NCBI GenBank assembly: GCA_965215475.1
Contig: OZ244061.1
Location: 832,015 to 896,014 of the forward strand
Direction of reading: 5' to 3'
DNA length: 64,000 bases
Source of the DNA: Rhodothermales bacterium
Lineage (GTDB): Bacteria; Bacteroidota; Rhodothermia; Rhodothermales; Bin80
Both the position numbers and the translations under genes were made by a program. The notes beneath the pieces are model-generated. The model did not search any database and was not told the DNA's origin. It worked only from the letters and a program-made list of their open reading frames with translations. Shown here one piece after another: positions 10,017 to 62,414 of the stretch. The first letter of the stretch is position 1; every line of letters begins with the position of its first letter.

Positions 10017-10224
10017 CAAACATACCTCCCCCTCGAACAAGTTTCTGTACTCCTACTGCATAGCTGCGATATCTTCTTCCTCCAACTTAAGTACCGTTTT
10101 AAAACTGCTAGATAATTTTTGACATGCACCTATCCGATTCCGATGAACAAGTGCTTCTGAAATACTTCCAATACATTGCAACCACCTACTATCGCCGGAG
10201 AAATCGAAAGACAAGTATGGTTCT

Positions 10225-11523
10225 TCAGTTTCCCACGACTCGACCTCCCCAGTTAGTTTGGGAAGCGTCAGTTTTATCGCTATGGTTACGTAGCGACTGA
10301 AGTGCAATATTCAGGGTAGCAATTACACTCTTCTGCTTGTTACGATCCCGATCCTCCCCGAACTGATGCTTTACTGCCCATGCTCTTCGCGCATCGGCAA
10401 ACCCAATCCAAACAAGACCAACCGGCTTCTCCTCCGTTCCTCCGGAAGGTCCAGCAATTCCTGTTACAGATAACCCAATATCACTGTGAAACCGATTGCG
10501 TACTCCTTCTGCCATCTGCACAGCAACGGGTTCACTCACTGCGCCAAAACGGTTCAAAATATCACGGTCTACGTCCAAATGGTGCTGCTTTATCAAGTTC
10601 GAATAAGCAATCACGCCACCCAGTACATAATCAGAGGATCCTGGCACATCGGTGAGGTGATTAAGTACCGAGCCACCTGTACAACTCTCTGCAATGGCAA
10701 TGGTCATGCCCTTACTCTTTAATTGATGTCCTAGAATACTTTCTAGTGTATCGTCGTCTTGGCCAAAGATCACGGAGCCGAGTTTCGATCGGACAAGCTT
10801 TTCGGCAGCATATAAGCGCTTCTTTGCATGATCTCCACGAATGGTTAGCCTGACACGAACACTATAAGCTGATGGGAGATAAGCAATCTGAAGATCAGAT
10901 TCTAATCCATGAGATATAGCCTCGATCTGGCTCTGAACCCATGTCTCGCCCACTCCAGCAATTTTTAGAGTCCGTTGAGCAATCTCCGTCCGGCCATCCA
11001 TTCGTAAGATTCGGGGGATCACATGATCGGAAAAAATAGCTTTCATTTCATGAGGAACCCCTGGCAGAAGGATTACTGCATTCCCACTTCCCCCTTTGTA
11101 CCATAACCCGGGAGCGGTTCCCTTGGAGTTCCGTAATATTTCAAACCCGCCAGGAACACTCGCAACACGCTCCGATCCCGGAGGTACCGAACGTCCAAGG
11201 GAGATAAAGTGACGCTCGACCGCGGCTAAGATCGTAGGATCTACTACGAGACTAGAACCCGTAAATTCTGCGGCAGCATCTCTGGTAAGATCATCCGAGG
11301 TGGGACCAAGGCCTCCCGTTACCAACGTAAGATCACAACACCCCATACCATTTGCAATTGCTGTTTTTATTACTTCTTTATCATCACCTACCGTCAGCGA
11401 ATACGAAACGGTAATCCCCAAGTGCGTTAGCTCTGATGCGAGATAGGAAGCATTGGTATCCACTACCTGCCCCACCAGAAGCTCATCTCCTACGGTTATA
11501 ATACTTGCGATGAGCTGTGTCAC
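10225..11523 (-). CDS. cinA: CinA-family competence/damage-inducible protein (MoCF-type domain + nicotinamide-nucleotide amidase domain)
   Basis: 432 aa. N-terminus ITVGDELLVGQVVDTNASYLA; C-terminal domain AESCTGG...GLSVTGIAGPSGG. Confidence 0.9.
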   Translation of the reverse strand: MTQLIASIITVGDELLVGQVVDTNASYLASELTHLGITVSYSLTVGDDKEVIKTAIANGMGCCDLTLVTGGLGPTSDDLTRDAAAEFTGSSLVVDPTILAAVERHFISLGRSVPPGSERVASVPGGFEILRNSKGTAPGLWYKGGSGNAVILLPGVPHEMKAIFSDHVIPRILRMDGRTEIAQRTLKIAGVGETWVQSQIEAISHGLESDLQIAYLPSAYSVRVRLTIRGDHAKKRLYAAEKLVRSKLGSVIFGQDDDTLESILGHQLKSKGMTIAIAESCTGGSVLNHLTDVPGSSDYVLGGVIAYSNLIKQHHLDVDRDILNRFGAVSEPVAVQMAEGVRNRFHSDIGLSVTGIAGPSGGTEEKPVGLVWIGFADARRAWAVKHQFGEDRDRNKQKSVIATLNIALQSLRNHSDKTDASQTNWGGRVVGN

Positions 11524-11532
11524 GTTAATCTC

Positions 11533-12180
11533 TCAATGTTTTAGCGTCCATTCCTGATAATTATCTCTCCATTCCAGCAATGAATCTCTCCATTCAGATG
11601 AGATATATCCTGTCTCAATTGCTACATCTAATAAGACATCAAAATCAGATAAGGTTTCCAGTGGAGTACTTTTTTTTTGGAATAATTCTGCTACACCATC
11701 CAATTTGTACGTGAAAATTGCTAAGGTAATGACCGGCATTGAGCCAGTGACGTCCTGTATCGCTTCGGCTGCCTGGATTGATGAAAGACCCGTAGCCACG
11801 AGATCCTCAATCATCAGAACCTTACTGTTTCCTGAGAGATGCCCTTCAATCTGATTCTGATGTCCATGCCCTTTGGGTTCTGGCCGAACATAAACTAAAG
11901 GTAACGAGAGTCGCTCTGCTACCCATGCTGCGTGAGCAATTCCAGCGGTCGCCACCCCTGCCACGTAATCAAACTCATGCTTTGATGCCTTTTCAACAAA
12001 CCCATCTATCAACATACTGCGGATTTTGGGATACGAAAGCGTCCGTCGATTATCGCAATAAACGGGTGCTTTCATACCAGAAGACCAGACAAATGGCTTG
12101 CCCGAAGTGATCGTTATGGCTTTAATATCAAGCAATGCACGAGCTATTTCTCGTGCAATCAACTCAGATTGATCCTTCAT
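11533..12180 (-). CDS. pyrE: Orotate phosphoribosyltransferase
   Basis: 215 aa with the PRPP-binding loop KVLMIEDLVATGLSS; type I PRTase layout. Confidence 0.85.
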   Translation of the reverse strand: MKDQSELIAREIARALLDIKAITITSGKPFVWSSGMKAPVYCDNRRTLSYPKIRSMLIDGFVEKASKHEFDYVAGVATAGIAHAAWVAERLSLPLVYVRPEPKGHGHQNQIEGHLSGNSKVLMIEDLVATGLSSIQAAEAIQDVTGSMPVITLAIFTYKLDGVAELFQKKSTPLETLSDFDVLLDVAIETGYISSEWRDSLLEWRDNYQEWTLKH

Positions 12181-12193
12181 GAATACGTAAATG

Positions 12194-12760
12194 TCAAGTT
12201 TTTATATATACACAGATATAAGAAAATGCAGTAAGGCAAGTTACAACAACGACCGCTATCATAGAGACATACATGAAATCTCCTTGCAGGATTGCTTGGG
12301 CAAATTCATGTGCCCCAGATAGATATTGTAGCATTAGTATAAACAGGAAGAAGCCTAAGTACGTCATTTGCATAGCGGTCTTGACCTTTGCAAATTGAAT
12401 CGTTGGAAAAGATCTTCTTGTTGATTCAGCAGTCATTCGTAACCCCGTCACGAGTACATCCCTGAGTATAATCAATCCAACCGCCCACCATGGGATTTGC
12501 TGAGGATACATCCAGGCCAATGTAAGAAAGCTTCCCAGAATAAAAATTTTATCGGCAATGGGATCAAGGTGCCGTCCTAGTCGACTATGATTCTCTAGTA
12601 CTCTTGCAGCGTATCCATCTGCAAAATCCGAAACTGCCCCAAGGACAAAAAGCACGAACGAAAGAAATGCAAACGTAAGGGATTCTCGGAAAAGACAGAG
12701 AACTAGAACCGGGGTTACCAGAATGCGAAATACTGTAATGGCATTCGGAATGAATTGCAT
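12194..12760 (-). CDS. pgsA: CDP-alcohol phosphatidyltransferase (PgsA-like)
   Basis: Motif DGYAARVLENHSRLGRHLDPIADK = DG(x)2AR(x)8G(x)3D(x)3D, with multiple TM helices. Start chosen at ATG 12760 (MQFIPNAITVFR); the ORF stays open up to 12850. Confidence 0.8.
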   Translation of the reverse strand: MQFIPNAITVFRILVTPVLVLCLFRESLTFAFLSFVLFVLGAVSDFADGYAARVLENHSRLGRHLDPIADKIFILGSFLTLAWMYPQQIPWWAVGLIILRDVLVTGLRMTAESTRRSFPTIQFAKVKTAMQMTYLGFFLFILMLQYLSGAHEFAQAILQGDFMYVSMIAVVVVTCLTAFSYICVYIKT

Positions 12761-12934
12761 GACAAAACTATGCAGACAGAACCTTTCTACCGAAACAATG
12801 ACAGTGCGTTCATCCTCCGACCGTTGCACAAATGTCCCATGATCTGCCATTCTGTCCGATGTGAATGATCGGCAGGATTATTGCCCATTGGCTCCCTGTA
12901 GTACAACCTTAAAATAATTACAAACACGAATAAT

Positions 12935-14866
12935 ATGAGCAAGATTATTGGAATTGACCTAGGTACAACGAACTCGGTGGTCTCGCTATTGGAAGGTGGT
13001 GAGCCTAAAGTAATTGAAAACGCTGAAGGTGGTCGTACAACCCCGTCCGTAGTTGCATTTAAGAAAGATGGCGAGCGTCTTGCTGGTGGACCTGCAAAGC
13101 GTCAGGCCGTGACCAACGCAGAGAATACGGTTTTCTCTATTAAGCGTTTTATGGGTCGCGCCTATGATGAGGTGCCCGGCGAACTGAAAACTGTTCCATA
13201 TAAGGTTGAAAAGGGAGAAAACGGAACCGCGCGTGTACGTATTGAGGAGAAACTGTACTCGCCACAGGAAATTTCAGCGATGATTCTGCAGAAGCTCAAG
13301 AATACTGCAGAAGACTATCTGGGAGAGAAAATCTCCGAGGCTGTGATCACCGTTCCGGCCTATTATAACGATGCCCAACGTAAGGCAACCAAAGAAGCGG
13401 GGAAAATTGCTGGTTTGGAGGTTCGTCGAATTATTAATGAGCCAACAGCTGCTGCACTTGCATATGGTCTTGGCAAACAGGATAAAGATCGCACCATTGC
13501 CGTCTATGACCTGGGTGGAGGTACTTACGATATCTCTATCCTGGAACTCGGTGGTGGTGTATTTGAAGTGAAGTCAACCAATGGGGATACTCATCTTGGT
13601 GGTGATGATTTTGACCATAAACTGATTGATCACCTCGCCGACGAATTTCAAAACTCTGAAGGAGTTGATTTGCGCGCCGACAAAATGGCATTACAACGGT
13701 TGAAAGAAGCTGCTGAAAAAGCGAAAACAGAACTCTCCAGTAGCAGTGAAACCTCTATTAATCTGCCATTCATTACGGCAACGGCAGACGGTCCCAAGCA
13801 CCTGACCACCACTCTGTCGAGGGCAAAATTTGAGCAATTGATCGGCGACCTGGTTCGGCGTACAGTTACTCCAATGAAGCAGGCATTAGAGGATGCAAAA
13901 CTTACGCGTGATCAGATTGATGAAGTCATCCTGGTTGGTGGCTCTACGAGAATTCCACTTGTACAAAAAACAGTAGAAGAATTCTTTGGCAAAGCGCCGA
14001 ACAAATCGGTGAACCCCGACGAAGTCGTCGCGATGGGAGCGGCGATCCAAGGTGGTGTATTATCTCAGGATATTGACGATGTTCTGTTGCTTGATGTGAC
14101 CCCGCTTAACTTGGGTATTGAAACTCTTGGTGGTGTGATGACTACGCTGATTGAGTCCAATACCACGATCCCGACACGGAAACAAGAGGTATTCTCAACT
14201 GCATCTGATAATCAGCCTTCCGTTGAGATCCATGTACTTCAAGGAAACCGAGACATGGCAGTTCATAACCGGACCATCGGCAAATTCCACCTTGATGGAA
14301 TTCCACCTGCAAGACGCGGTACCCCCCAAATCGAAGTAGCTTTCGATATCGATGCGGATGGCATCCTAAATGTCACGGCAAAAGATAAAGCTACAGGCCG
14401 AGAGCAATCCATCCGGATTGAAGCATCCAGTGGGCTTTCGGAGAGTGAGATTGAGCAGATGCGCCAGCAGGCAAGAGAGAATGCAGATGAAGACAAAAAA
14501 CATCGGAAAGAGATTGAACTTCTCAACCAGGCGGACAGTCTTATCTACACCTCTAAAAATAATCTCTCGGAGTATGGAGAAAAACTCTCCGAAGATAAAA
14601 AGGCAAAGATTACCGGAGCTCTCGAGCGATTGGAAAGTTTGCATGAAGCAAAGAACTTCGATGAACTGGAAAGTGGCATTGAGCAGTTAAATGAAGCTTG
14701 GGCCGCGGCAAGCGAAGAAATTTATGCTGCCCAGCAAGCCGCAGCACAAGAAGAAGCGGCAGCCTCAGAAGAGCCCTCCACCAACGGTCAGGCCTCCACT
14801 GACGATGATGTCATTGACGATGCTGATTTTGAGATCGTTGAGGAAGAAGAACCGGAAACAAAATAA
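12935..14866 (+). CDS. dnaK: Molecular chaperone DnaK (Hsp70)
   Basis: 643 aa. Contains [23 protein letters not shown] and [11 protein letters not shown], with a very acidic C-terminal tail. Confidence 0.98.
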
Positions 14867-37414: not shown

Positions 37415-38737
37415 TCATGCTGCTTCGCCTTCTCCGACAAGAATAGATTTTTTGGATTTCCATCTGAATACATCATAAGACAGTGCCAGTAGAATCAACC
37501 CGTATTCCAAAGGGCGTACCCAGTCTGGGTGTGCAAACGGATGCATTTCCATGTTATTTAGATTCAATCCTGTGATATACGATAATAGCACTGCAACCGA
37601 GGCCGTCCACGCCCACGCGCTCGGACGAATTGCCGCAAAGGGCAGCAGCCATAACAGATACCATGAATTGACAACGGGCCAAAGTGCAAATAACCCGCCA
37701 TAAATCCAGTCTACCCGCACTATTGTGTCCTGCTCTCTCCGTCTATAGATCCAGTAGTAGATCCCAATCCCAACCGCGAGAACTACCCCACATATAATTC
37801 GAGCTGTGGTATTGGGAACCCAAGGCTTTAACAAACTGAACAAGGCGGCATTAAATTCCCACTCGCGTGTAAATACAAGTAAGGTCTCCAAATCTGTACT
37901 TCCCTGCAAAATGAAGGGAACGTAGATCAAGGCCAATGTTGCGAGAAAGATCCCCCATACACGTAGATGTGCACGTGCCAAGATAAACGGAATGACAAGT
38001 AAAGCTAGGATTTTTGCTCCCACGGCTAAAGCCAAAAAAATAGCGGCACCATAGATTCTATCTTTTCGAGCCAAAACAATTGCAACAAGAACAAGAAACA
38101 CAGCAACTATATCGGGGTGAGCCGTAAATGCAATCTCCTTAATCACTAAGGGGCTCCATGCATAGAGTATTACCGCTGATGGAGATGCCAATCGAAGCAG
38201 TAGAACTATCGTCATCACATCAAAAACAATCATGATGCCCTGCAGTGCTGTAACACTGCCTGGAGCAAGCCCATATCCTCCTAAAAATACAAGCTGTGTG
38301 ACCGGCCCATAGATCGTCGGCAATTCGGGATAATTGATGCCATCCAGAATACGTTGAAACTGTTCATGCACATTCGTGTCGAGAAAAAACGCTTCTGGCG
38401 GCAATCCATAAGGCGTCCCATCCTGAACGAATCGAAAAGCATCCCACAAGTACCTGTAGAAATCGTCCTCATAGAAAGGCCCTCCGATCAGCCCGCAAAT
38501 GCGAAATAAAATTGCCCAACCAATGAGCCGGGAGATTGGGATTTTTTCATCCGAGTTGCGACGATAATAGACAAAAAGAATAAACGTAATGGCGGCAACA
38601 CATATCGAAAGGCCCAGAAATAGTTCGAGAGAAGGATCTCCAGACGTTCGAGTAACCCAAGAAAGTCCGCCATAGATCAGCAGACATACCAAACCTGCTA
38701 GATCAATCGGTGAAACGACTCGAGTTAATTTCTGCAT
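37415..38737 (-). CDS. Polytopic membrane glycosyltransferase, GT-C-like (DUF2029/PMT_2-like)
   Basis: 440 aa with more than 10 predicted TM helices. First-loop acidic motif GGPFYEDDFYRYLWD resembles GT-C catalytic loops. The family call is tentative. Confidence 0.5.
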   Translation of the reverse strand: MQKLTRVVSPIDLAGLVCLLIYGGLSWVTRTSGDPSLELFLGLSICVAAITFILFVYYRRNSDEKIPISRLIGWAILFRICGLIGGPFYEDDFYRYLWDAFRFVQDGTPYGLPPEAFFLDTNVHEQFQRILDGINYPELPTIYGPVTQLVFLGGYGLAPGSVTALQGIMIVFDVMTIVLLLRLASPSAVILYAWSPLVIKEIAFTAHPDIVAVFLVLVAIVLARKDRIYGAAIFLALAVGAKILALLVIPFILARAHLRVWGIFLATLALIYVPFILQGSTDLETLLVFTREWEFNAALFSLLKPWVPNTTARIICGVVLAVGIGIYYWIYRRREQDTIVRVDWIYGGLFALWPVVNSWYLLWLLPFAAIRPSAWAWTASVAVLLSYITGLNLNNMEMHPFAHPDWVRPLEYGLILLALSYDVFRWKSKKSILVGEGEAA

Positions 38738-39182: not shown

Positions 39183-40403
39183 CTACAAACTTATCCGATG
39201 TACGTCCTCTATAAAATCTTTCAAAGTTTGCAATTTTGGCCGCATATCCCTGTTATACTTACCCATCAATTTTTGGGGAACCACCAGACGGACGCAAGAT
39301 TCCTGCATTTCTCTGAATTGATTTAGTGAAATTCCTTCCTGAAGTGTCAATAGATGCTTTTCCGGGATGCGTCTAGCCTCATTTAATATCTGTCTCCACC
39401 GGTCCTTACAGGTTGTTTTCACAGCTAACATGCGAAGTTTCTGATAAGGCACGCTCTGATTCCTGTATGCATCAGCTGAGGGGAATAGAAAATCTGGCTT
39501 TCTGCCAGGATCGGATTCCTTATTGTATGAAAAGCTGATGTCTTCCTCAAACCCTTCTTCTCTAAAAATTTCTTTTAGATGAAGTTCAAGTGATCTTCCG
39601 GACCGAGCTTTACGCCGCTGTAAAACTGATTGGGCTACCTCCCTAAATTCTTCCATATTGCTGAAGCCTTGCTCAATCCTTGGGAAATAAAAAGCATTCT
39701 CAATGCTATCATATAGATCTTGTTCACAATCTCGCCGTTCCATTAATCTCCGATCTGGATCCATAGAGGAACCGGGAATTCTTCGCACTGCTTCCGACAT
39801 AACTGTCAAGGGTTCTGGAAAAGATTGAATCCAATTCGGAGGAATCTCATCGGGGTTCACCCCATTTCTTACTGAATGACGATTTTGTAGATCTGGACGA
39901 GCTCTACATGATGAAGAAGATTCTATGATCAATGTTCTTCCTGGCTCAACAGGGCCTATACGGCTCTCAACAAAGATCTCTTCCGATCTATCATGACATA
40001 TCCATAAACGACATTCTTTGACTGCCCCTTGAGTATCAGTGGGGAAAACAAATATAGCCAGAGCCCCTGTATTTTCAGGATCAAGGACAGATGATTTATA
40101 TCCACCAAATCCCGTCAAACGCACCTCATTACGCGTTCCGTCGTGCCACTTATTGTTATACCATATTGCACTGATTTCCCTGTGTTCTTCATGTGAATCT
40201 ATATGGAAATTGAGTATAATGCGTGGATTTTTTTTCTCTACCTTGTTAAGATTCGGGAGTAGGCGTAAAAGGAAATCTCTTGGTATGTAAGGACCTGCTT
40301 GGTGCGTTCTATTGGCAAGTGTATCATTACCCGAGAGACGCTTAACGTACCATGTTGCAACAGAGCATTTATCCATCCAATCCCATAGTTTTTTATTGGA
40401 CAT
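39183..40403 (-). CDS. Type IIE restriction endonuclease, EcoRII-like
   Basis: N-terminal effector domain YVKRLSGNDTLANRTHQAGPYIP (compare EcoRII YIKRLSANDTGATGGHQVGLYIP). The C-terminal catalytic region contains NLRMLAVKTTCKDRWRQILNEA, identical to EcoRII as I remember it. Start chosen at ATG 40403 (406 aa); the ORF is open to 40469. Confidence 0.85.
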   Translation of the reverse strand: MSNKKLWDWMDKCSVATWYVKRLSGNDTLANRTHQAGPYIPRDFLLRLLPNLNKVEKKNPRIILNFHIDSHEEHREISAIWYNNKWHDGTRNEVRLTGFGGYKSSVLDPENTGALAIFVFPTDTQGAVKECRLWICHDRSEEIFVESRIGPVEPGRTLIIESSSSCRARPDLQNRHSVRNGVNPDEIPPNWIQSFPEPLTVMSEAVRRIPGSSMDPDRRLMERRDCEQDLYDSIENAFYFPRIEQGFSNMEEFREVAQSVLQRRKARSGRSLELHLKEIFREEGFEEDISFSYNKESDPGRKPDFLFPSADAYRNQSVPYQKLRMLAVKTTCKDRWRQILNEARRIPEKHLLTLQEGISLNQFREMQESCVRLVVPQKLMGKYNRDMRPKLQTLKDFIEDVHRISL

Positions 40404-40854
40404 TTTCTCTTCCCCTAATTTCTGCATTGTGACTAGCTGTTCTGAGCCAATTTCCAGCCCTACATACAACTTCGTTAATAGGATATTTACCTCTTCCTTT
40501 CAATGCACATTCCCAAACAACTAGGGTTCTCCACCCTTTTTCTCCCAACAATCTACTATTTCTAACATCTCGTTGTACATTTCCTGCAATCTTATTTCTC
40601 CAGAATTCTGCACGGGATTTAGGCCATCGAAACAAGTGACACTCATGTCCGTGCCAGAAGCAACCATTGACAAAAATCACTGCCTTATATCTTGGAAAAA
40701 CCAAATCTGGCGTCCCCGGAAGTCTGCGATCATGCAGGCAATATCGAAACCCAAGCTTATGTAGACCGCGACGTAGAATAAGTTCAGGTTTTGTATCAGA
40801 TCTCTTGATGCTAGACATCATTCGACTTCGAGTTTTCCTGCTAACTATATCCAT
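40393..40854 (-). CDS. vsr: Very-short-patch repair endonuclease
   Basis: 153 aa. Contains TKPELILRRGLHKLGFRY..., PGTPDLVFPRYKAVIFVNGCFWHGH and FWRNKIAGNVQRD; canonical Vsr. Confidence 0.92.
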   Translation of the reverse strand: MDIVSRKTRSRMMSSIKRSDTKPELILRRGLHKLGFRYCLHDRRLPGTPDLVFPRYKAVIFVNGCFWHGHECHLFRWPKSRAEFWRNKIAGNVQRDVRNSRLLGEKGWRTLVVWECALKGRGKYPINEVVCRAGNWLRTASHNAEIRGRENVQ

Positions 40855-40861
40855 CTGATAT

Positions 40862-42079
40862 TCATCTCGACAACGACTCTTTTTTCATCCCTCCAGTACG
40901 GTGCATTTCCAGTTCCACCTGGATATGCGGTTTCAATAATGTAGCAATGGCCCGAACTACCGGGACCACAACCGCATTCCCAAACTGCCTGTATGCTTGC
41001 GTATCAGAAACTGGAATTTCAAATTCAGGTTGCCCCGGTTCGTCAAATCCCATCAGGCGAGCACATTCACGCGGGGTAAGCCTCCTTGGACGATTTTTAT
41101 CCTGCTTAATCAGGATCTCAGATCCATCCTTGTGATATCTAGCTGACAGCGTACGAGCTACATCATTCGGGCTAAACAGCGAGTATCCAAAACCATTACC
41201 AGCCTTACGATGTTTCTCCTTGTAATCCCTAAGGTAACGCCAAAGATGTTTTGTAAGTGTGTATTTGGGATCTACTTCAGGCAATAGAATGTTTTCTAGT
41301 ACGGGCGGCGGCCCACTTGGAACCATCAAATTTTCAAAATTGAACGGAACACTATCCCTGAATCCTAAAATAAAGATTCTTTCACGCTTTTGGGGGACCC
41401 AAGGCGCTGAGTTAATAATACGGATATGTACACTATAACCCAACTCTTTTTCGAGAACATTCATAATGGTACCGAAAGTTCTTCCACCATCATGACGCTG
41501 AAGATGTTTAACATTCTCCAAAAGAAATGCAAAAGGCCGGTGATATTCTAGAATCTTTGCTAGATCGTAAAAAAGCGTACCTTGGGTATCACACAGAAAG
41601 CCATGAGGCTTCCCCAGAGAATTCTTCTTTGAAACACCTGCAAGAGAAAATGGCTGACAAGGAAAGCCCGCCAGCAAAACTTCATGATCGGGGATTCGTT
41701 CCGGTTCTTTGGCAATTGGACGAATATCTCCAATAAATTTATGATCTTTCCTCTCAAGAAAATTGGCAGCATACGTCTGACACGCAAATCGATCCCATTC
41801 AGATGTAAAAACACATATACCTCCAATTTCTTGGAAAGGAATGCGCATACCACCAATTCCCGCAAAAAGATCTATGAAACGGAAAGATCTGTTTTGCTGT
41901 CGACCCTTTATTTCATTAGCTAATCCCTTCATGATCTCAATAACCGGAGATGGGGGGACTGTTTTGTACGACTCATATCGATAAATCGTTCTGACAGATC
42001 TTCCAACAAGACGAGCCGTAGTAGCAATAGAAAGTCCAGTTCTTTTCCGTAATGCTGCAAATTCAGTGTATTCTGGCAT
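40862..42079 (-). CDS. dcm: DNA (cytosine-5) methyltransferase with N-terminal XRE-type HTH
   Basis: HTH LRKRTGLSIATTARLVGRSVRTIYRYE. MTase motifs I FIDLFAGIGG, IV GFPCQPFS, VI LLENV, VIII QKRERIFILGF and X QFGNAVVVPV. Confidence 0.92.
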   Translation of the reverse strand: MPEYTEFAALRKRTGLSIATTARLVGRSVRTIYRYESYKTVPPSPVIEIMKGLANEIKGRQQNRSFRFIDLFAGIGGMRIPFQEIGGICVFTSEWDRFACQTYAANFLERKDHKFIGDIRPIAKEPERIPDHEVLLAGFPCQPFSLAGVSKKNSLGKPHGFLCDTQGTLFYDLAKILEYHRPFAFLLENVKHLQRHDGGRTFGTIMNVLEKELGYSVHIRIINSAPWVPQKRERIFILGFRDSVPFNFENLMVPSGPPPVLENILLPEVDPKYTLTKHLWRYLRDYKEKHRKAGNGFGYSLFSPNDVARTLSARYHKDGSEILIKQDKNRPRRLTPRECARLMGFDEPGQPEFEIPVSDTQAYRQFGNAVVVPVVRAIATLLKPHIQVELEMHRTGGMKKESLSR

Positions 42080-42429
42080 GAAGATGTATCTATCCTTATC
42101 TCAAAGAGAGCTACAATATCGTTTCCTAATGAGCCTCTGACAAAATGTTCTTATAACAAGTTCTGATCCTTTCCAATATAGGCATATCACTAAATACTTG
42201 ATAGCAGCGTCAGAAACTCATCAAGAGCAATCTCATTCCTCATGTTAATCGAGTTTTTAATCCCCGACAACGACAAATCTTCATTTCACATCGTAGTACT
42301 TCACCCATATACTGCTATCTCACGACGATCCCTGACCGAACAATGGATGTTCTTGCCATTTTACTCTACTAAAAATGGAAATGTCAGTTCGCGTGCTTAC
42401 CCGTGTATTTTAATTATGTTATATGCGAG

Positions 42430-42522
42430 GCTCTTGCAAAACCACTGATCCAAGCAGAAAGGATCCCCTCAGGTACTCTCAGAGTTATGTTTGCGCTCAA
42501 GTAAGAGAGGTTTTGCAAGAGC
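42430..42522. repeat. MITE-like palindromic element, copy 2 (perfect 14-bp terminal inverted repeats)
   Basis: GCTCTTGCAAAACC (42430-42443) and GGTTTTGCAAGAGC (42509-42522) are exact reverse complements. The interior matches 21660-21722. The GGCTCTT start resembles ISL3-type IR termini. Confidence 0.7.
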
Positions 42523-42758
42523 ATCATGCTTATAATAAATTGAGAAACTATAAGCATAAAATAAGGTAACCGCTGTGTTATATCTTTGATATACCTAATC
42601 CGCTCTGTGAGCTGTGAGATAGACTCAGACTGTCTGTCATACAATTATTGTTCAGTTCATTGAAATCTTTTAACTTAACGGTGATTCACCAGCTTCCACA
42701 GAATATTGCTTTACTCTAATACATTACATAAGTTATTCTCTGAGAAATGATTGCATAG

Positions 42759-44903
42759 ATGAATCAACTCAAACTGAAAAACCAATTTGATCAAATACCG
42801 ATCCAAGTACATCCTCGCGTCTTTGATGCCTTGGGATCCGATCTAGTTACCAATGACATTGTTGCTGTGATTGAGTTAGTAAAAAATGCCTATGATGCAT
42901 TTGCATGTAATGTTTGGCTGTCTTTCGAACATGATCCTATACAAGGTGACTACTTGGAAATCAAGGATGACGGTCATGGCATGTTAAGGAAAACCATCGA
43001 AAATACATGGTGTACTATAGCTACACCGAATAAACAAAGACATCCTTATGTTGAGAGTGGTGACGGTCACAAGAGGCGTGTAAGTGGTGAAAAAGGCCTC
43101 GGACGGCTCTCGGCTGCACGACTGGGGACACGATTGGATATGCTGACCAAATATCAAGGTAATCCGTGTTGGGAAGTAAAGATTGATTGGCGTATCATAG
43201 CTAGTGGAGACGATATTTCACAGAGTTTTGTGCAACTTCGAGAATTGTCGAATACGCCGCCATTTGAGACAGGCACGCGACTACGCATATTTGAACTGAA
43301 GAGGAAATGGGATAGAAGGCGAAAGGACGATCTCAGAGAGAATCTAGGACGTCTAGTTTCTCCTTATGATTTCAATGATGAATTCAATATCTATTTCTCT
43401 GATTCTCCAGATAAAAAATCCGAATCAATTGTTATTCAGTCACCAAAGTTTTTATCTTATCCAAAATACCGTTTCTATGGAAATGTAGACAAACAAGGAA
43501 ATGTGTGTGGAACATATCAGTTTAGGCCTATCGGACAGAAAATTCAGAAATGTGAAAGTGAAAACATCCAATGGACACATATTCATAGAGGTCTATCCGA
43601 TCCCATCCAAGTTCAACATCAACCTGACCCAGCATCATGTGGCCCCTTCTCATTCGAAATCCGAGCTTGGGATATAGGACCCGACGATCAGGAAGAAATT
43701 GCTACTGGATTCGAGATCAACAAAAAAAATATTCGCCGAGTAATCAGTCACCATAAGGGAATTTCCGTGTATCGCGATAATGTTTTAATGTTACCTAAAA
43801 CTGATAGTGATCGTGATTGGTTAGGGCTTGATCTTCGACGGATAAGCAAAATCGGTCCAAGACTGAGTACAAGCCAGATCGTCGGCTATGTTCAAATATC
43901 AGCGGCTGAAAATCCGAATATTCGAGACACCAGTGACCGTGAACAACTCGCAGATTCTAAAGAAGTAGATGAATTCAAAGCAATCCTAAAAGCCATAATC
44001 CAAAAACTTGAGAGGAAGCGTTCTGAGGATCGTCATACAGATGCACTGGAAAAACCAATTAGCAGCCTATTTGAAGAAATCTCTGCCGATAACCTCCTTG
44101 AAAATATCAGATCTCTGTCAGTAAAGAGTCCAAAAATAGCTGAGATACTGCCTGTTATTACAAAATTCAAGAGTTCACTTGATGAAAGAGTTCATACCAT
44201 CCAACAGCGATTTATCTATTATAGCCGCTTAGCTACCATCGGCTCAATCGCGGAAATGCTCATACATGAAGTTCGTGGCAGAACTACAGTTTTTGGGAGA
44301 TTTATAAAATTTGTCCATAAGAAACTTCTTCCGAGTGCTGATGTCGCGACAGAGATCAAGTACGCCTCCGATGCAACCGATGCTTTGGATCGTTTGGCCG
44401 ATACATTTGCTCCACTAGCTAGTCGACGTTTTCGTCGGCGTCTCAGAAAAACTATTTTGGAGGATCGTATCAATGTCTGTGTTACACTCATGCAAGATGA
44501 AATCACGGCCAAGCAAGTCGACTGTAATATATTGACGTCAACTACACCTGTTGCCGTTGATCCTGGTGAGCTTGATGCTATTCTTCTAAACCTGATCTCG
44601 AACTCTCTCTATTGGCTGTCTGATGTGCCAAAGAATCAGCGGAAAATAGAATTCGTGATTGACCACTCTACTCCCAACCAGCAACGTGTTACCATTAGTT
44701 TATACGATACGGGGCCAGGAGTTGCAAAAGAATACTTGGACAAAGTATTCTGGCCTGGAGTCACTCTAAAACCATCTGGAATTGGTATGGGATTGACTGT
44801 GGCATCTGAACTTGTTGCGTCGTATGATGGACGTATGTACACGAAAGAACTAGGGAAAAAAAACGGTGCAGTTTTTGGTTTTGACTTACCTTTACGCTTG
44901 TAA
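42759..44903 (+). CDS. Dual-GHKL protein: N-terminal MORC/Hsp90-like (HATPase_c_3-type) ATPase module fused to a C-terminal histidine-kinase core (DHp-like H-box + HATPase_c)
   Basis: 714 aa. GHKL no. 1: N-box IELVKNAYDA (res 38-46), DDGHGM (70-75), GEKGLGRLS (110-118). Middle region: GISVYRDNVLMLP...DWLGLDL. HK core: IAEMLIHEVRGRT (His503), N-box LLNLISNSLYW (609-619), G1 LYDTGPGV (648-655), G2 SGIGMGL (673-679). Confidence 0.8.
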   Translation: MNQLKLKNQFDQIPIQVHPRVFDALGSDLVTNDIVAVIELVKNAYDAFACNVWLSFEHDPIQGDYLEIKDDGHGMLRKTIENTWCTIATPNKQRHPYVESGDGHKRRVSGEKGLGRLSAARLGTRLDMLTKYQGNPCWEVKIDWRIIASGDDISQSFVQLRELSNTPPFETGTRLRIFELKRKWDRRRKDDLRENLGRLVSPYDFNDEFNIYFSDSPDKKSESIVIQSPKFLSYPKYRFYGNVDKQGNVCGTYQFRPIGQKIQKCESENIQWTHIHRGLSDPIQVQHQPDPASCGPFSFEIRAWDIGPDDQEEIATGFEINKKNIRRVISHHKGISVYRDNVLMLPKTDSDRDWLGLDLRRISKIGPRLSTSQIVGYVQISAAENPNIRDTSDREQLADSKEVDEFKAILKAIIQKLERKRSEDRHTDALEKPISSLFEEISADNLLENIRSLSVKSPKIAEILPVITKFKSSLDERVHTIQQRFIYYSRLATIGSIAEMLIHEVRGRTTVFGRFIKFVHKKLLPSADVATEIKYASDATDALDRLADTFAPLASRRFRRRLRKTILEDRINVCVTLMQDEITAKQVDCNILTSTTPVAVDPGELDAILLNLISNSLYWLSDVPKNQRKIEFVIDHSTPNQQRVTISLYDTGPGVAKEYLDKVFWPGVTLKPSGIGMGLTVASELVASYDGRMYTKELGKKNGAVFGFDLPLRL

Positions 44904-44906
44904 CCG

Positions 44907-46064
44907 ATGATTTCGACAAACATTGGAATGCTGAAATTGCTTTTTGTTGATGATCGAGAAGAAGATCTAAGACCGATACGAAAATTGATAGAAGGTAAAG
45001 AGAACATGAGTTTCCATCATGTGGATAGTGTGGTCGAAGCGAAAAATGAAATTAAGTCTACGAGACCGGATATAGTAATAATTGACCTTAAATTATCCTC
45101 TCAAGCATCCGATTCAAATTTGGAAGGCAAAAAAGTTGAGGATTTAATCTGGGATAATCATTTCTGTCCAGTAATAATCTACTCCGGGTTTGCAGAAGAT
45201 TATGAATCCAGTGATACAAATCAGCGCAGGAACCACCCCCTCGTTAAAATAGTCCCTAAGGGGAGAGACAGTGAGGATGAAGTATTAAATGCTATTGAAT
45301 CCTTTAGCCAATATTCGCTGGCTATTCAAGAAGTTGCGACAGATGTTTGGTCTGCACGTCAAGAAGCACTCCGAGATGCAGTTCCCCATATTCTTGGGGA
45401 AAGTTTGCATGAAGAGAGTGTTGAAAATGTTAAGATAACGGTTAAGCGCCGAATAGCCAGTATGATGGATAAACCTATCTCAGGTGATACTCCATTGGCT
45501 GCCCAAACCCAATATCTGATTCCTCCAATAGGTAATAACGTAATCTTGGGAGATATCCTTAAAAAGAGGGAGGCGGATTCCGCGGACCCCATATCTTTCC
45601 AAGTCGTTCTTTCACCTTCCTGTGATATGGTTGATTCTGGGAAACGTAAAGCTAAGATTTCTAATGTGCTGGTTGCCAAATGCGACTCACTCAAAACATT
45701 GCTTGAAAGTGCGGGTATGGGAGGTAAAATGAACCCTAAACTGGAAAAACAGATAAAATCACACGTACTCACACCAGGTTTTTTTAAGACCGTAGTTCCT
45801 TTTCCATGTTTTTCTGGACATATCCCGAGTATGGGAGCTAATATGAGGGATTTGGATCTAATTCCCTTAGAGGAGATCGGAACACTCGATTCTGATAAAA
45901 AATATTTGAGAGTCGCTTCTATTGACAGTCCATTTCGAGAATTGATTTCTTGGTCATACCTCCAAGTTGCAGCTCGACCGGGCCTTCCTGATCGAAACTT
46001 TGAATCTTGGATACAGGAAATATCTGATGCATGGAACAATGACCACGATCGTAATACCAAATGA
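44907..46064 (+). CDS. Response-regulator receiver (REC) domain protein with uncharacterised ~250-aa C-terminal domain
   Basis: 385 aa. REC signature residues: LLFVDD (D15/D16), DIVIIDLKL (D60), VIIYSG (S93), LVKIVPKG (K114/K118). No DNA-binding or known enzymatic motif seen after residue ~130. Notable conserved-looking strings: VVLSPSCDM and RVASIDSPFRE. Starts 3 nt after the upstream stop. Confidence 0.75.
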   Translation: MISTNIGMLKLLFVDDREEDLRPIRKLIEGKENMSFHHVDSVVEAKNEIKSTRPDIVIIDLKLSSQASDSNLEGKKVEDLIWDNHFCPVIIYSGFAEDYESSDTNQRRNHPLVKIVPKGRDSEDEVLNAIESFSQYSLAIQEVATDVWSARQEALRDAVPHILGESLHEESVENVKITVKRRIASMMDKPISGDTPLAAQTQYLIPPIGNNVILGDILKKREADSADPISFQVVLSPSCDMVDSGKRKAKISNVLVAKCDSLKTLLESAGMGGKMNPKLEKQIKSHVLTPGFFKTVVPFPCFSGHIPSMGANMRDLDLIPLEEIGTLDSDKKYLRVASIDSPFRELISWSYLQVAARPGLPDRNFESWIQEISDAWNNDHDRNTK

Positions 46065-47113
46065 AAGCTCTGGATTTTTTTTGCGGAGCCGGTGGATTGA
46101 CTCGAGGCCTAATTGATGCTGGCATTGATGTCATTGCCGGATATGACTTAGACGAGAAATGTCGAGCTACCTATGAATACAATAATCCAAACACAAAATT
46201 TGTACATGCAGATATTAGATCCCTGACTTCTGCTGATATATTACTCCGATTCCAATCTCATGATACGGAGGAAGATATTCTGTTCGCCGCATGTGCGCCG
46301 TGTCAGCCGTTCAGTTCACAGCGTAAACCATATACTACGTCTCGGGGTGCTCAATTGCTGAAAGAATTTAGCCGACTAGTAGAATCAATGCAACCCACAT
46401 TCGTGTTGATTGAAAATGTGCCAGGAATGGCTAGAGTTCAAGGATTTAGTACTTACAGGCGATTCCTAAAGACGTTGAAATCAAATGATTACAGATATGA
46501 CTGGAAAGTTCTTGACGCAAAACACTTTGGCGTCCCGCAAAATAGACGACGCTTGGTACTTATAGCAAACAAAAAAGGGCCTATAACATTGCCCCAACCA
46601 ACATTTGGTGAAAATTTACGTCCATTTTCCACTGTTCGTGAAACTATTGATCATTTTCCTCAAATCGGTGCTGGTGAAACACACACACATGTACCTAATC
46701 ATGTAGCGGCCTCCGTTTCACCCTTAAATCTTAATCGACTTCGCAAAACCCCACATGATGGTGGAGATCGCAGAGCATGGCCACAGAGTATTTGGTTGAA
46801 TTGTCATAAAGGGCCTTACTCTGGACATACGGATGCTTACGGGCGTTTATCTTGGGACAAACCTGCACCTACCTTGACGGGAAGATGTAACAGTCTTTCC
46901 AATGGAAGATACGGACATCCCGACCAAGATCGAGCAATATCATTACGGGAAGCCGCTTCCTTGCAGTCCTTTCCAAAAAACTACATCTTCTTTGGATCCA
47001 ACAAACACATTGCTATGCAGATCGGTAATGCAGTTCCTGTGAAACTTGCAAAACGACTCGGCGAACACATACTCAATACTTCAAGAGATCTTGAGCCCAA
47101 TCACCGAACATGA
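46061..47113 (+). CDS. DNA (cytosine-5) methyltransferase (second, unrelated copy)
   Basis: 350 aa. Motifs I LDFFCGAGGLTRG, IV ACAPCQPFS, VI LIENVPGM, VIII PQNRRRLVLIA, IX LREAASLQSFP and X QIGNAVPV. The ATG overlaps the upstream stop (ATGA at 46061-46064). Confidence 0.9.
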   Translation: MKALDFFCGAGGLTRGLIDAGIDVIAGYDLDEKCRATYEYNNPNTKFVHADIRSLTSADILLRFQSHDTEEDILFAACAPCQPFSSQRKPYTTSRGAQLLKEFSRLVESMQPTFVLIENVPGMARVQGFSTYRRFLKTLKSNDYRYDWKVLDAKHFGVPQNRRRLVLIANKKGPITLPQPTFGENLRPFSTVRETIDHFPQIGAGETHTHVPNHVAASVSPLNLNRLRKTPHDGGDRRAWPQSIWLNCHKGPYSGHTDAYGRLSWDKPAPTLTGRCNSLSNGRYGHPDQDRAISLREAASLQSFPKNYIFFGSNKHIAMQIGNAVPVKLAKRLGEHILNTSRDLEPNHRT

Positions 47114-47819: not shown

Positions 47820-48353
47820 TCAGGAACGGACATTGATCAATTTTTCATAATCCGCTTCTGTCAAACTTCCATCGGAACGTAAACGATCAAGTGCACGTGA
47901 AACTGCAGCCCAATCCGTCTCCTTCAAATTGGAGGAATCAGGGAGTAACATCACGTTTCGAAGGAATTCTTCAATATACTCAGCACTCCGGGGATGCTTC
48001 GAAAGATCCAGTTTTACGGAAAAGGTTGCCCTCCCCCGATTCACTTCCATGATGATATGAGTTCCTCGAAGCTTTGATCGACTAGACTCAACAAAAACAA
48101 TATCCCTGTAATGTATCGTCTGGGGAGATTCCAAGTCTGAGTTTTGAAAAATCAGTTGATCTTCCAGAAATACGACCCCATCCTTGCCATTGCCCAAAAA
48201 CGTCCCATCATACAGAGCAAGAATATCCTCTGGGTGCGTATCCTTTGCATAATCACGGGTTGCCCCTCGAAGCCTTTTTGAAGGGATTTCCGGGGCAACA
48301 TATAACCCGATCTTCGGTGCATGTGGTAAAAGATTCTTGACCAGCGATCTCAT
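47820..48353 (-). CDS. Hypothetical protein (177 aa)
   Basis: Clean ORF in the intergenic slot between sodA and nuoN. No motif recognised. Confidence 0.4.
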   Translation of the reverse strand: MRSLVKNLLPHAPKIGLYVAPEIPSKRLRGATRDYAKDTHPEDILALYDGTFLGNGKDGVVFLEDQLIFQNSDLESPQTIHYRDIVFVESSRSKLRGTHIIMEVNRGRATFSVKLDLSKHPRSAEYIEEFLRNVMLLPDSSNLKETDWAAVSRALDRLRSDGSLTEADYEKLINVRS

Positions 48354-61418: not shown

Positions 61419-61639
61419 CGAGTGGCGACCCCTATGAAACAGTTGTAGGGTTAGAAGCCCATTGTTAACGAATTCCAAAACGTTCGGCGAGTTAGATCTA
61501 ACGAAAAACACGATTCTAATCTCCACACAAAGGCTAAATCCATCCGACGGAATTCACAGAGAGGGGTTGTAGAGTCAAGAGTTCGTCGCGTTTCTTATGT
61601 CCTACGGGTCATTCGCTTTCGTTGTTCACGCACCCATTG

Positions 61640-62414
61640 GTAGGCTCCTACAAGTCGTTTCCGACCTCCTGCTCGTCAAACCGGACGTGCGGTTTTCCCG
61701 CATCCGGCTTTCCGTTGATCTCATGACTTCGCCCATGGAAGGCCTTTGGTCGTTGGAACAAGGCGATGTAATCCATAGATGTTCATCTGAAAAATGCGCC
61801 TATTTCCCAGTTCGCACCTTGTATTTGTGACAAAACCACGGTCGCAACCGCTTGAATGGCTTTCTCATGTAGTACGGTCCGAGATCTCTGAACCCTATCA
61901 GATCCTATTAGGTGTTCACCAGTACTCATGTCCTTTCGTTCTTATCCATACTATGATCAACGGAGGATTCCTTTTCTCTACGGACATTCCTCCGCGTCTT
62001 CGGTACTACAGACCCATCCGCCCAACCTGCCCCTCGTGGGATTCTGGTTGCCTTGTACATCGGCACCAATAGGGCTTCCCGTGTTGCCACTCCTTCCATC
62101 TTACATGCATCCCGAGATCAATACCCCGACGGATATAGCCCGGTGCGTGTAGTGTCGGTCTTCTCCTAGACGATCAGCGGCCTTCCTCTATGAAACGAAG
62201 GGTCGGCTCCCGTATTACATGTTTCGAGGCCTGCTCAATCTTCATGCTCGTTTCGGCCTGCATGCTCGCTGAATCGCCTACGCGATCCTTTTATCCAAAA
62301 TGCTTCCATTCATGTCGTTACCTCCATCAATCGTTTTGGTTGCTACCAGATGGAATGACAGTTGCTGGGTGGATCTCGCAACCCACAAGAAAAAAGCATC
62401 TTTCCACGGCACAC
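61640..62414 (-). ncRNA. ORF-less group II intron (class C-like); the 3' boundary is uncertain
   Basis: The minus strand starts GTGTGCCGTGGAAAG (GUGYG) right after a 20-bp palindrome. Domain V at 61710-61677 reads AAGCCGGAUGCGGGAAAACCGCACGUCCGGUUUG, with the AGC triad, a G-U wobble, a GAAA(A) loop and a CG bulge. No long ORF and no RT motifs. Confidence 0.6.

Follow-up and report, generated by a model that had tools for sequence, protein, structure and literature searches.

A soluble paraMORC-like ATPase-histidine kinase and its putative restriction-modification-linked two-component cassette in a Rhodothermales genome

We examined a gene in a 64,000-nt stretch of DNA from a Rhodothermales bacterium (assembly GCA_965215475.1, contig OZ244061.1, positions 832,015 to 896,014, forward strand; the whole stretch is hereafter called the window). 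The gene (42759..44903, +) is an uninterrupted open reading frame (ORF) of 714 aa in the window ORF list, and its sequence predicts one soluble polypeptide that joins an intact ATPase of the MutL/Hsp90/paraMORC class, a transducer-like module and a complete HisKA-type kinase core, with domain matches far beyond chance. The gene layout indicates that the kinase is co-transcribed with two genes downstream, which encode a response regulator with a receiver and an orphan output domain X (REC-X) and a C5 cytosine DNA methyltransferase, and sequence comparison indicates that the kinase co-evolves with REC-X. We think it fairly probable that the kinase is the sensor-transmitter of a restriction-modification (R-M)-type defense cassette of three genes, often four with Vsr, that works as a two-component system. 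The effector is probably REC-X, and because no other nuclease gene is conserved in the family, X is most likely a nuclease or other DNA-directed or toxic enzyme of a yet unclassified fold.

The defense assignment is supported by the homology of the N-terminal half to AbrB of a validated defense system, by the resemblance of the N-terminal ATPase to GHKL-containing type II restriction enzymes, by defense-island neighbors (EcoRII here, others elsewhere), and by decayed copies in which the response regulator is lost or the module is split but the methylase is still there. Kinase and REC-X keep their order and co-evolve, whereas methylase types are swapped beside them. MORC/paraMORC-type GHL ATPases are widespread in prokaryotic R-M and defense loci and in eukaryotic chromatin silencing, and their sensing and output coupling are largely obscure.

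A GHL-type ATPase and a HisKA-type kinase core in one chain

The initial annotation of this gene, made from the sequence alone, had proposed two GHKL folds in a single chain, and the results confirm this. Two Pfam models match the protein well above their cut-offs, HATPase_c_3 at residues 35-162 (E 1.1e-19, 71 bits against a cut-off of 25) and HATPase_c at residues 601-713 (E 9.6e-15, 55 bits against 26), and invariant motifs and Foldseek agree with them. The N-terminal Bergerat-fold ATPase (aa 16-216; 42804..43406, +) has the catalytic Glu39 and the N-box Asn43. A profile of the N-terminal 440 residues matches MutL (E 9e-7), Hsp90/Grp94/HtpG, PMS2 and MORC3 (E 7e-4) in the PDB, confirming the N-terminal GHKL fold at the profile level, and motif I aligns with that of MutL (ELvKNsyDA and ELVENSLDA, respectively). 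In an alignment of 66 full-length members, which underlies all residue conservation reported for the kinase, the residues E39, N43, D46, D70, G72, G74, G110, G113, G115 and T173 are invariant (66/66), and the domain therefore carries the Bergerat motifs I-IV of the GHL branch: ExxxNxxD with the catalytic Glu, DxGxG, GxxGxG and a Thr/Ser. MutL and the Hsp90-type proteins outscore MORC3, so that MORC sensu stricto is not the closest relative; the earlier label "MORC-like" is right about the GHL type, but MutL/Hsp90/paraMORC-like fits better, and on these profile scores the protein would best be called paraMORC-like. The kinase shares with MORC/SMCHD1 and MutL/Hsp90 the Bergerat fold with a catalytic Glu, but it has no CW, hinge or endonuclease domain. 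It may also have a second domain of the transducer type (S5 fold, like the middle domain of Hsp90), which in GHL proteins supplies a Lys to the ATP site; K347, which is invariant, would be the candidate.

The C-terminal half has the features of a class I HisKA-type kinase, namely a DHp His followed by an acidic residue and the N, G1, F and G2 boxes. Residues 441-712 align with the AtoS, ZraS and FixL models of NCBIfam, residues 488-711 align with solved kinases, including ThkA (3a0r, E 2.7e-15) and FixL chimeras, and NtrB, HK853 and ZraS are further PDB matches of this part; the Pfam HisKA model does not match the window kinase. The DHp helical hairpin (aa 491-555; 44229..44423, +) contains the H-box HEVRGRTT, which pairs with the H-box HEIRNPIT of solved kinases such as ThkA and FixL, and His503 (codon 44265-44267, +) is therefore the predicted phospho-accepting histidine. 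H503, E504, R506, R508 and T509 of the H-box are invariant (66/66), which upholds the earlier placement of His503 in a DHp-like helix. The catalytic ATP-binding (CA) domain (aa 560-714; 44436..44900, +) keeps N611 and N615, D650, G652 and G654, and G674, G676 and G678 in all 66 members, and F664 in 64 of them. Position +4 of the H-box, which in HisKA kinases is tied to phosphatase activity, is Asn in 59/66 members and Gly in the window copy (G507, codon 44277-44279).

The AlphaFold2 (AF2) model of the kinase has a mean predicted local distance difference test score (pLDDT) of 73.6, with values below 50 at residues 345-372. In Foldseek searches, the last ~240 residues of the model match HK853, ZraS and YF1 (E 1e-12 to 1e-10), and about 420-470 columns of the N-terminal half align with the N and M domains of Hsp90 and the ATPase module of SMCHD1 at a template modeling (TM) score of only ~0.3. 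A helical linker (aa 401-490; 43959..44228, +), modeled as helices 401-424, 435-440, 444-454 and 460-491, connects the sensor half to the DHp hairpin. The protein has no hydrophobic segment (the maximum Kyte-Doolittle 19-mer is 1.2) and no match to PAS, GAF or other sensor families even at E<=10, in line with the earlier description of a soluble kinase without transmembrane or known sensor domains.

Between the two halves lies the transducer-like middle module (aa 217-400; 43407..43958, +), which is indicated by the Foldseek alignment, a winged-helix-turn-helix-like motif (about aa 308-347) and the identity profile along the chain. The Pfam match to this motif (PF21531, Rv2175c_wHTH) falls at about residues 313-348 in 55/66 members and is weak but consistent in position, with a best E of 3.3e-6. 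The mean pairwise identity is 0.75-0.82 at residues 322-391 and 0.82-0.85 at the ATPase N-box, both above those of the H-box and the CA domain, and residues 252-291 are hypervariable. The conserved stretch continues into a hyper-conserved basic loop (aa 345-395) with the signatures LPK347, RDWLGLDLRR361 and TSDRE395, in which K347 is invariant and R352, D353, W354, R360 and R361 show complete or almost complete conservation; the AF2 model leaves this loop unstructured at low pLDDT. Such conservation would be expected of a segment that contacts nucleic acid or a nucleotide and operates alike in every member. The initial annotation had taken the MORC-like half as the likely input of a cytoplasmic kinase. 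An input role of this half is reasonable and indirectly supported, because it is homologous to AbrB, in which N40A abolishes defense, because the winged-helix-turn-helix match is consistently placed, and because the loop at 322-391, rather than the kinase core, is the most conserved stretch. A free-standing cytoplasmic sensor does not fit, since the kinase is the first gene of an operon, and the proposed gating by DNA clamping is conjectural.

Predicted operon of the kinase, REC-X and a C5 methylase

The operon context was absent from the initial annotation. The REC-X gene (44907..46064, +; 385 aa, 248 homologues) starts 3 nt past the stop of the kinase gene, and its stop overlaps the start of the methylase gene (46061..47113, +; 350 aa) as ATGA. 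No terminator-like site is found on the + strand within the operon. The divergent intergenic region upstream (42080..42758), in which no ORF matches a family, presumably holds the operon promoter; promoter matches in it are at the consensus level only, such as 42285-42313 (+), and do not in themselves argue for function. Because the kinase heads an operon of kinase, REC-effector and C5 methylase genes, R-M-type defense is the more plausible biology than a sensor acting alone.

The N-terminus of REC-X (aa 9-120; 44931..45266, +) is a receiver. The Pfam Response_reg model matches it with E 1.6e-5 and 25.5 bits, which is below the gathering score of 30.2, and matches 67/83 full-length members of the REC-X family; a profile of this family matches PDB receivers with E 7e-7. 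The AF2 model of REC-X has a mean pLDDT of 89.6, and its receiver resembles those of PmrA, DesR and AdeR with target-normalized TM-scores of 0.7-0.84 in Foldseek. D60, the predicted phospho-acceptor (codon 45084-45086, +), K118 and S/T93 (Ser in the window copy) are kept in 83/83 members, and the acidic pair D15/D16 is conserved, so that the (beta-alpha)5 fold, acidic pair, phospho-Asp, Thr/Ser and Lys of a receiver are all present. The receiver is followed by a 44-residue helix and then by the 220-residue alpha/beta domain X. The identity matrices of the kinase and the response regulator are strongly correlated (Spearman 0.82), and the receiver beside the kinase, which co-evolves with it and keeps D60 and K118 in every member, points only indirectly to the predicted autophosphorylation and phosphotransfer.

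The third gene encodes the presumed modification or self-marking component, a C5 cytosine methyltransferase (Pfam DNA_methylase, E 7e-59; PADLOC MTase_II, E 1e-89). In the main type of methylase, which lies downstream, the target-recognition region is conserved as strongly as the core. About 15% of the loci have another C5 methylase type, upstream of the kinase (L021, L023-L025, L034, L039, L041, L043, L045, L048, L065, L075 and L079), which scores ~175-215 bits (363 in L079) against the window enzyme, compared to ~370-530 bits for the main type. The kinases and response regulators of these loci are no more divergent than those within the main group, indicating that the methylase module is exchangeable, and methylase identity correlates weakly with kinase and response regulator identity (Spearman 0.29 and 0.21).

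Distribution, conservation and decay of the cassette

Full-length homologues of the kinase number more than 120, with identities of 51-71%, and a sister strain has a copy at 98%. In a scan of one genome per species we found at least 115 loci, and 80 of them were analyzed with hidden Markov models built here. The kinase ORF is present in 79 of the 80. Among these 79 loci, REC-X lies immediately downstream of the kinase in 76, and a C5 methylase lies within 5 kb of it in 75, directly downstream in 57 loci and directly upstream in 12. All three genes are kept in 74/79 loci, and the loci that break the pattern are contig ends or decayed copies. When all flanking ORFs of the 79 loci are clustered, Vsr is the sole other recurrent neighbor, occurring as a fourth gene in 52 loci and missing from one third; no HNH or other nuclease gene and no XRE gene recurs. 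The loci span Planctomycetota, Chloroflexota, Acidobacteriota, Nitrospirota, Latescibacterota, Bacteroidota/Rhodothermota, Verrucomicrobiota, Proteobacteria and others, and plasmids of Acaryochloris, Campylobacter and Bacillus carry relatives (23-30% identity) that have the same triad. In other loci, defense-island neighbors include DUF1156/DUF499, OLD-type ATPase, Fic and SLFN-like genes. The distribution is sporadic and like that of horizontally transferred genes, on plasmids and in defense islands. Related N-terminal ATPase modules also occur on haloarchaeal plasmids of Halomicrobium, Halobaculum and Salarchaeum (H30, H81 and H82), where they are annotated as sensor histidine kinase or ATP-binding protein and one adjoins a cytosine methylase; because of these modules, the cassette type is probably not confined to bacteria.

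Decay mostly strikes the response regulator gene or splits the module, and the methylase persists. An IS66 transposase directly follows the kinase in L028 (10118-11575), the response regulator is lost in L036, where the methylase directly follows the kinase, and the response regulator genes of L067 and L068 (~10150-13250) are interrupted or split. In the sister strain (L086, 10149-11308), a T7 run in the X coding sequence (window 45773-45779) has one T fewer, which frameshifts REC-X into 296 aa and 73 aa; its kinase and methylase are intact, and the divergence is locally raised (59 differences in 1158 nt). The frameshift could be genuine, an inactivation or slippage of the component that is presumed to be toxic, or it could be an error of long-read sequencing in the homopolymer.

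Output domain X of REC-X

Domain X (aa 168-385; 45408..46061, +) has a conserved signature. This comprises RRR180-182, GD216, (L/V)(T/S)PSCD240, C259, DSPFRE345 and RPGxP361, and R181, P206, D216, P237, C239, D240, P342, R357 and P361 remain invariant when the distant plasmid relatives (23-25% identity) are included. A single-sequence phmmer search of 1.84 billion representatives finds X in 421 clusters, virtually always at ~165-365 of ~370-aa proteins and only behind this receiver, and no alternative fusion partner occurs among them. Apparently long response regulator ORFs in L067 and L068 were considered as X fusions and rejected, since in this high-GC DNA they are either disrupted copies or extended upstream only spuriously. 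A profile of X against PDB sequences gives a best E of 0.73, which is noise.

We also compared the motifs of X by hand with PD-(D/E)xK, HNH, GIY-YIG, PIN, RNase H-like, deaminase and Cys-phosphatase families, and none is a convincing fit. A segment of the order alpha-beta-beta-beta-alpha-beta that contains E201, D216 and D240 is compatible with a divergent restriction-endonuclease-like core, a likeness that is not evidence for one. The window copy has T201 (45507-45509) where 79/83 members have Glu, and Q232 (45600-45602) where 75/83 have Arg. Its closest relatives share these deviations and the G507 of the kinase.

Comparison with known systems

The architecture of two GHKL folds in one chain, which the initial annotation had called unusual, occurs in at least 115 species-level genomes and had already been published in 2008 and 2021, so the window protein adds to a widespread kind that is experimentally almost unexplored. 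R.EcoUTORF4938P was described as a putative restriction endonuclease whose N-terminal domain is of the GHKL type and whose C-terminal domain resembles histidine kinases and has the motifs N, D, F and G (Orlowski and Bujnicki, 2008; PMC2441816). Proteins with HATPase_c_3, HEF_HK and HATPase_c domains were found to be linked in 91.6% of cases to Response_reg_2 proteins, C5 methylases and Vsr, and a cytoplasmic, paraMORC-derived two-component system with HATPase_c_3 as the sensor was proposed (Bellieny-Rabelo et al., 2021; PMC8011034). The window family shares with these the soluble HATPase_c_3-DHp-HATPase_c kinase, the neighboring receiver protein whose remainder carries no other annotation, and the tight linkage to C5 methylase and Vsr. 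It differs in that its DHp is HisKA-like (HEIRN consensus), that its members come chiefly from uncultured Planctomycetota, Chloroflexota, Acidobacteriota and Bacteroidota instead of from Proteobacteria, and that X is neither delimited nor discussed in PMC8011034. The Pfam models PF19191 (HEF_HK) and PF19192 (Response_reg_2) do not match the window proteins or the homologue P0036 at E<=10, nor the plasmid relatives at E<=1 or E<=0.1, and the window family is therefore regarded as a distinct lineage of the HEF_HK-like kind.

A validated system with a homologous sensor half is Ambrosia of Pseudomonas (AbrR-AbrA-AbrB-AbrC-AbrD), in which AbrB and the receiver AbrC are joined by an XRE regulator, an N6 methylase and an HNH nuclease; the substitutions N40A in the N-terminal GHKL N-box of AbrB and D60A in AbrC abolish its phage defense (bioRxiv 10.1101/2025.09.30.679545). 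The first 399 residues of AbrB (747 aa; HATPase_c_3 and HATPase_c), taken from the supplementary table of the preprint, were compared with the window kinase and align to its residues 4-400 with 30% identity over 420 columns (E 7e-40). The alignment includes the signature YRD...DWLGL...RR...NPN..D..NRE, and AbrB N40 is the equivalent of N43. Both systems combine a methylase with a kinase/receiver pair. However, Ambrosia has an N6-adenine methylase, an XRE protein and a separate HNH nuclease, whereas the window cassette has a C5 methylase and neither XRE nor HNH, and AbrC (209 aa) is without X, whereas the window receiver is fused to an effector-sized domain. In hhalign, the response regulator family shows no significant similarity to AbrC past the first strand. 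AbrB is thus the only Ambrosia component with a homologue in the cassette, which is not a member of that system.

The paraMORC ATPases of R-M systems (paraMORC1-5) were defined by Iyer et al. (2008; PMC2292703), who described them with helicases or fused restriction endonuclease or TIR domains, not with kinase cores. Like these and the HgiDII/BbrUII enzymes, the window cassette has an N-terminal MutL-like ATPase beside a cytosine methylase, with or without Vsr. HgiDII has its presumed nuclease in cis and no phosphorelay, whereas the similarity of the window kinase to it ends at aa 216: the BbrUII/HgiDII model of NCBIfam (NF050001) matches aa 16-216 only, with 83 bits against a cut-off of 550 and over model positions 4-201 of 659, and the kinase is thus not a full-length member of that family. 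In the plasmid collection, the matches listed contain only kinase-type and "ATP-binding protein" relatives and no HgiDII/BbrUII-type enzyme.

In Detocs, a defensive two-component system, a kinase senses infection and then acts through a receiver-fused effector. The likeness to the window cassette is in concept only, since the cassette has no Hpt buffer protein, a different sensor and a methylase, and PADLOC finds no Detocs component in it.

Proposed mechanism and alternative explanations

We propose the following mechanism for the cassette. The methylase would mark host DNA constitutively, as its frequent partner Vsr, which repairs 5-methylcytosine deamination, suggests. The ATPase, winged-helix and basic-loop module would interrogate DNA or a phage-induced DNA state, with ATP-driven dimerization of the N-terminal module as in other GHL ATPases, and the conformational change would be relayed through the helical linker to the DHp hairpin. 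The CA domain would then phosphorylate His503, and the phosphoryl group would pass to Asp60 of REC-X, releasing or activating X as the executive element. X, an effector domain fused to the regulator, would thereby take the place of the separate HNH nuclease of Ambrosia; this assignment follows from the fact that no other nuclease gene is conserved in the cassette family. That X is specifically a nuclease is possible, at somewhat less than an even chance. The fullest version is more tentative still and on balance doubtful: X would be an unclassified phosphorylation-activated nuclease or DNA-directed enzyme built around D216, C239-D240, R181 and R357, and the cassette a minimal "phosphorelay-gated restriction enzyme" in which a MutL/MORC-like ATPase reads DNA methylation or foreignness and licenses cleavage in trans through His-to-Asp phosphotransfer.

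Several results weigh against this proposal. X matches no family in Pfam (83 full-length members) or PADLOC, and a Foldseek search of the full-length REC-X model against the PDB and BFVD gives receiver-driven matches only. No His of X is invariant, and X lacks a canonical PD-(D/E)xK, HNH or GIY-YIG motif; with regard to a type II R-M system, a methylase is present and conserved, no nuclease domain is recognizable, and X is a candidate only. The window copy is off the family consensus at three well-conserved positions, N507G in the kinase and E201T and R232Q in the response regulator. That the read-out is sequence-specific and paired with the methylase is only hypothetical, as no segment of the kinase or the response regulator tracks the two methylase types (the lowest between/within ratio is 0.81, at kinase residues 252-291). 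Together with the conserved target-recognition region, this suggests that the kinase family may share a single DNA target or may sense methylation indirectly. In Ambrosia, expression is induced by infection, the authors favor transcriptional control through AbrC, and methylation gave phage no protection (bioRxiv 10.1101/2025.09.30.679545), and by analogy the R-M logic of the cassette may not be classical. Finally, all support for this family comes from sequence and predicted structure.

The alternative that survives best, although we consider it unlikely, is a purely regulatory two-component system, in which the kinase senses infection or DNA state, phosphorylated REC-X is a transcription factor for the methylase and/or unlinked effectors, and helices 262-288 with the following hairpin form a winged helix. 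The helix-helix-strand-strand segment at 262-320 varies more than any other part of X, which would suit a specificity element, and the transcriptional control favored for Ambrosia and the speculation in PMC8011034 on signaling control of R-M systems point in the same direction. However, there is no conserved effector gene to regulate save the methylase and Vsr, X is twice the size of a winged helix, its invariant Asp, Cys, Asp and Arg are typical of an active site, and no helix-turn-helix family matches any of the 83 REC-X members. AbrC, the regulator on which the analogy depends, is also wholly without X.

It is far less probable that restriction is carried out by the 714-aa protein itself, the role implied by the REBASE-style annotation of R.EcoUTORF4938P-like proteins, with the kinase-like C-terminus as a second ATPase or dimerization module and REC-X as an accessory subunit. 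The N-terminal ATPase does match the experimentally known GHKL-containing type II enzymes BbrUII and HgiDII and, at aa 17-143 in 66/66 members, the PADLOC REase_II model PDLC03419, and the architecture is listed among putative restriction endonucleases (PMC2441816). The similarity to HgiDII-type enzymes nevertheless stops at residue 216, residues 200-490 contain no nuclease motif, and the remainder resembles in its model an Hsp90/SMCHD1 transducer and a bona fide DHp-CA core. An invariant phospho-His, a full set of kinase boxes and a co-evolving Asp60 receiver would make no sense for a mere ATPase.

MutL stimulates Vsr in E. coli, and one could imagine DNA-damage or epigenetic housekeeping, in which the MutL-like ATPase, Dcm and Vsr monitor T:G mismatches from 5-methylcytosine deamination and the phosphorelay reports or coordinates very-short-patch repair. 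This is the least probable explanation: MutL is the best solved-structure match of the N-terminal half and Vsr accompanies most loci, but one third of the loci and the window cassette have no Vsr of their own, the distribution is sporadic on plasmids and in defense islands, and the homologous AbrB is needed for phage defense.

If the fullest version of the proposal holds, the cassette would represent phosphorelay-gated restriction, by which no characterized R-M system has been shown to work, and would offer a tractable bacterial model for MORC-type ATPases that couple DNA or epigenetic sensing to output. The predicted output is a textbook phosphorelay from His503 to Asp60, so sensor activity should be readable by standard kinase assays, and the broadly distributed three-gene family, in which the additional genes of Ambrosia for a regulator and a nuclease are absent, could be the simplest system for study. 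It raises the questions of whether a MutL/MORC-like module discriminates methylated from unmethylated DNA, whether restriction can be licensed by phosphotransfer, and what X does; the orphan domain and the prospect of a minimal phosphorelay-gated R-M system are the points of most interest. In annotation, such genes would be better labeled as an R-M-linked two-component defense cassette than as a generic "sensor histidine kinase / response regulator".

Neighborhood of the cassette in the window

A separate and complete R-M system (39183..42079, -) lies divergently upstream of the cassette. It consists of a Dcm methylase fused to a helix-turn-helix domain (40862-42079; 405 aa; Pfam DNA_methylase and HTH_31), a Vsr ORF of 153 aa (40393-40854) and an EcoRII endonuclease (39183-40469; 428 aa; Pfam EcoRII-N/C). 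The only Vsr in the window is the one in this system, where tblastn with a family-linked Vsr finds it at 40507-40833 (55% identity, E 1e-25). In the sister genome, which is 98% identical, ~364 bp replace window positions 40178-42113, removing the methylase, Vsr and the 5' end of the EcoRII gene.

The defense cluster is flanked by ORFs of 177 aa (47820-48353, -) and 440 aa (37415-38737, -), which match no family in Pfam, NCBIfam or PADLOC; the 440-aa product gives a faint glycosyltransferase-like membrane-protein signal only. A SodB gene adjoins the cassette, and its product is 77-81% identical to proteins of uncultured Bacteroidota. The cassette is carried by a 3.7-Mb circular metagenome-assembled genome, and the window also contains a group II intron (61569-62388, -), whose domains D1-D4 and catalytic region D5-D6 are matched by the Rfam models RF02003 (60 bits) and RF00029 (44 bits), respectively.

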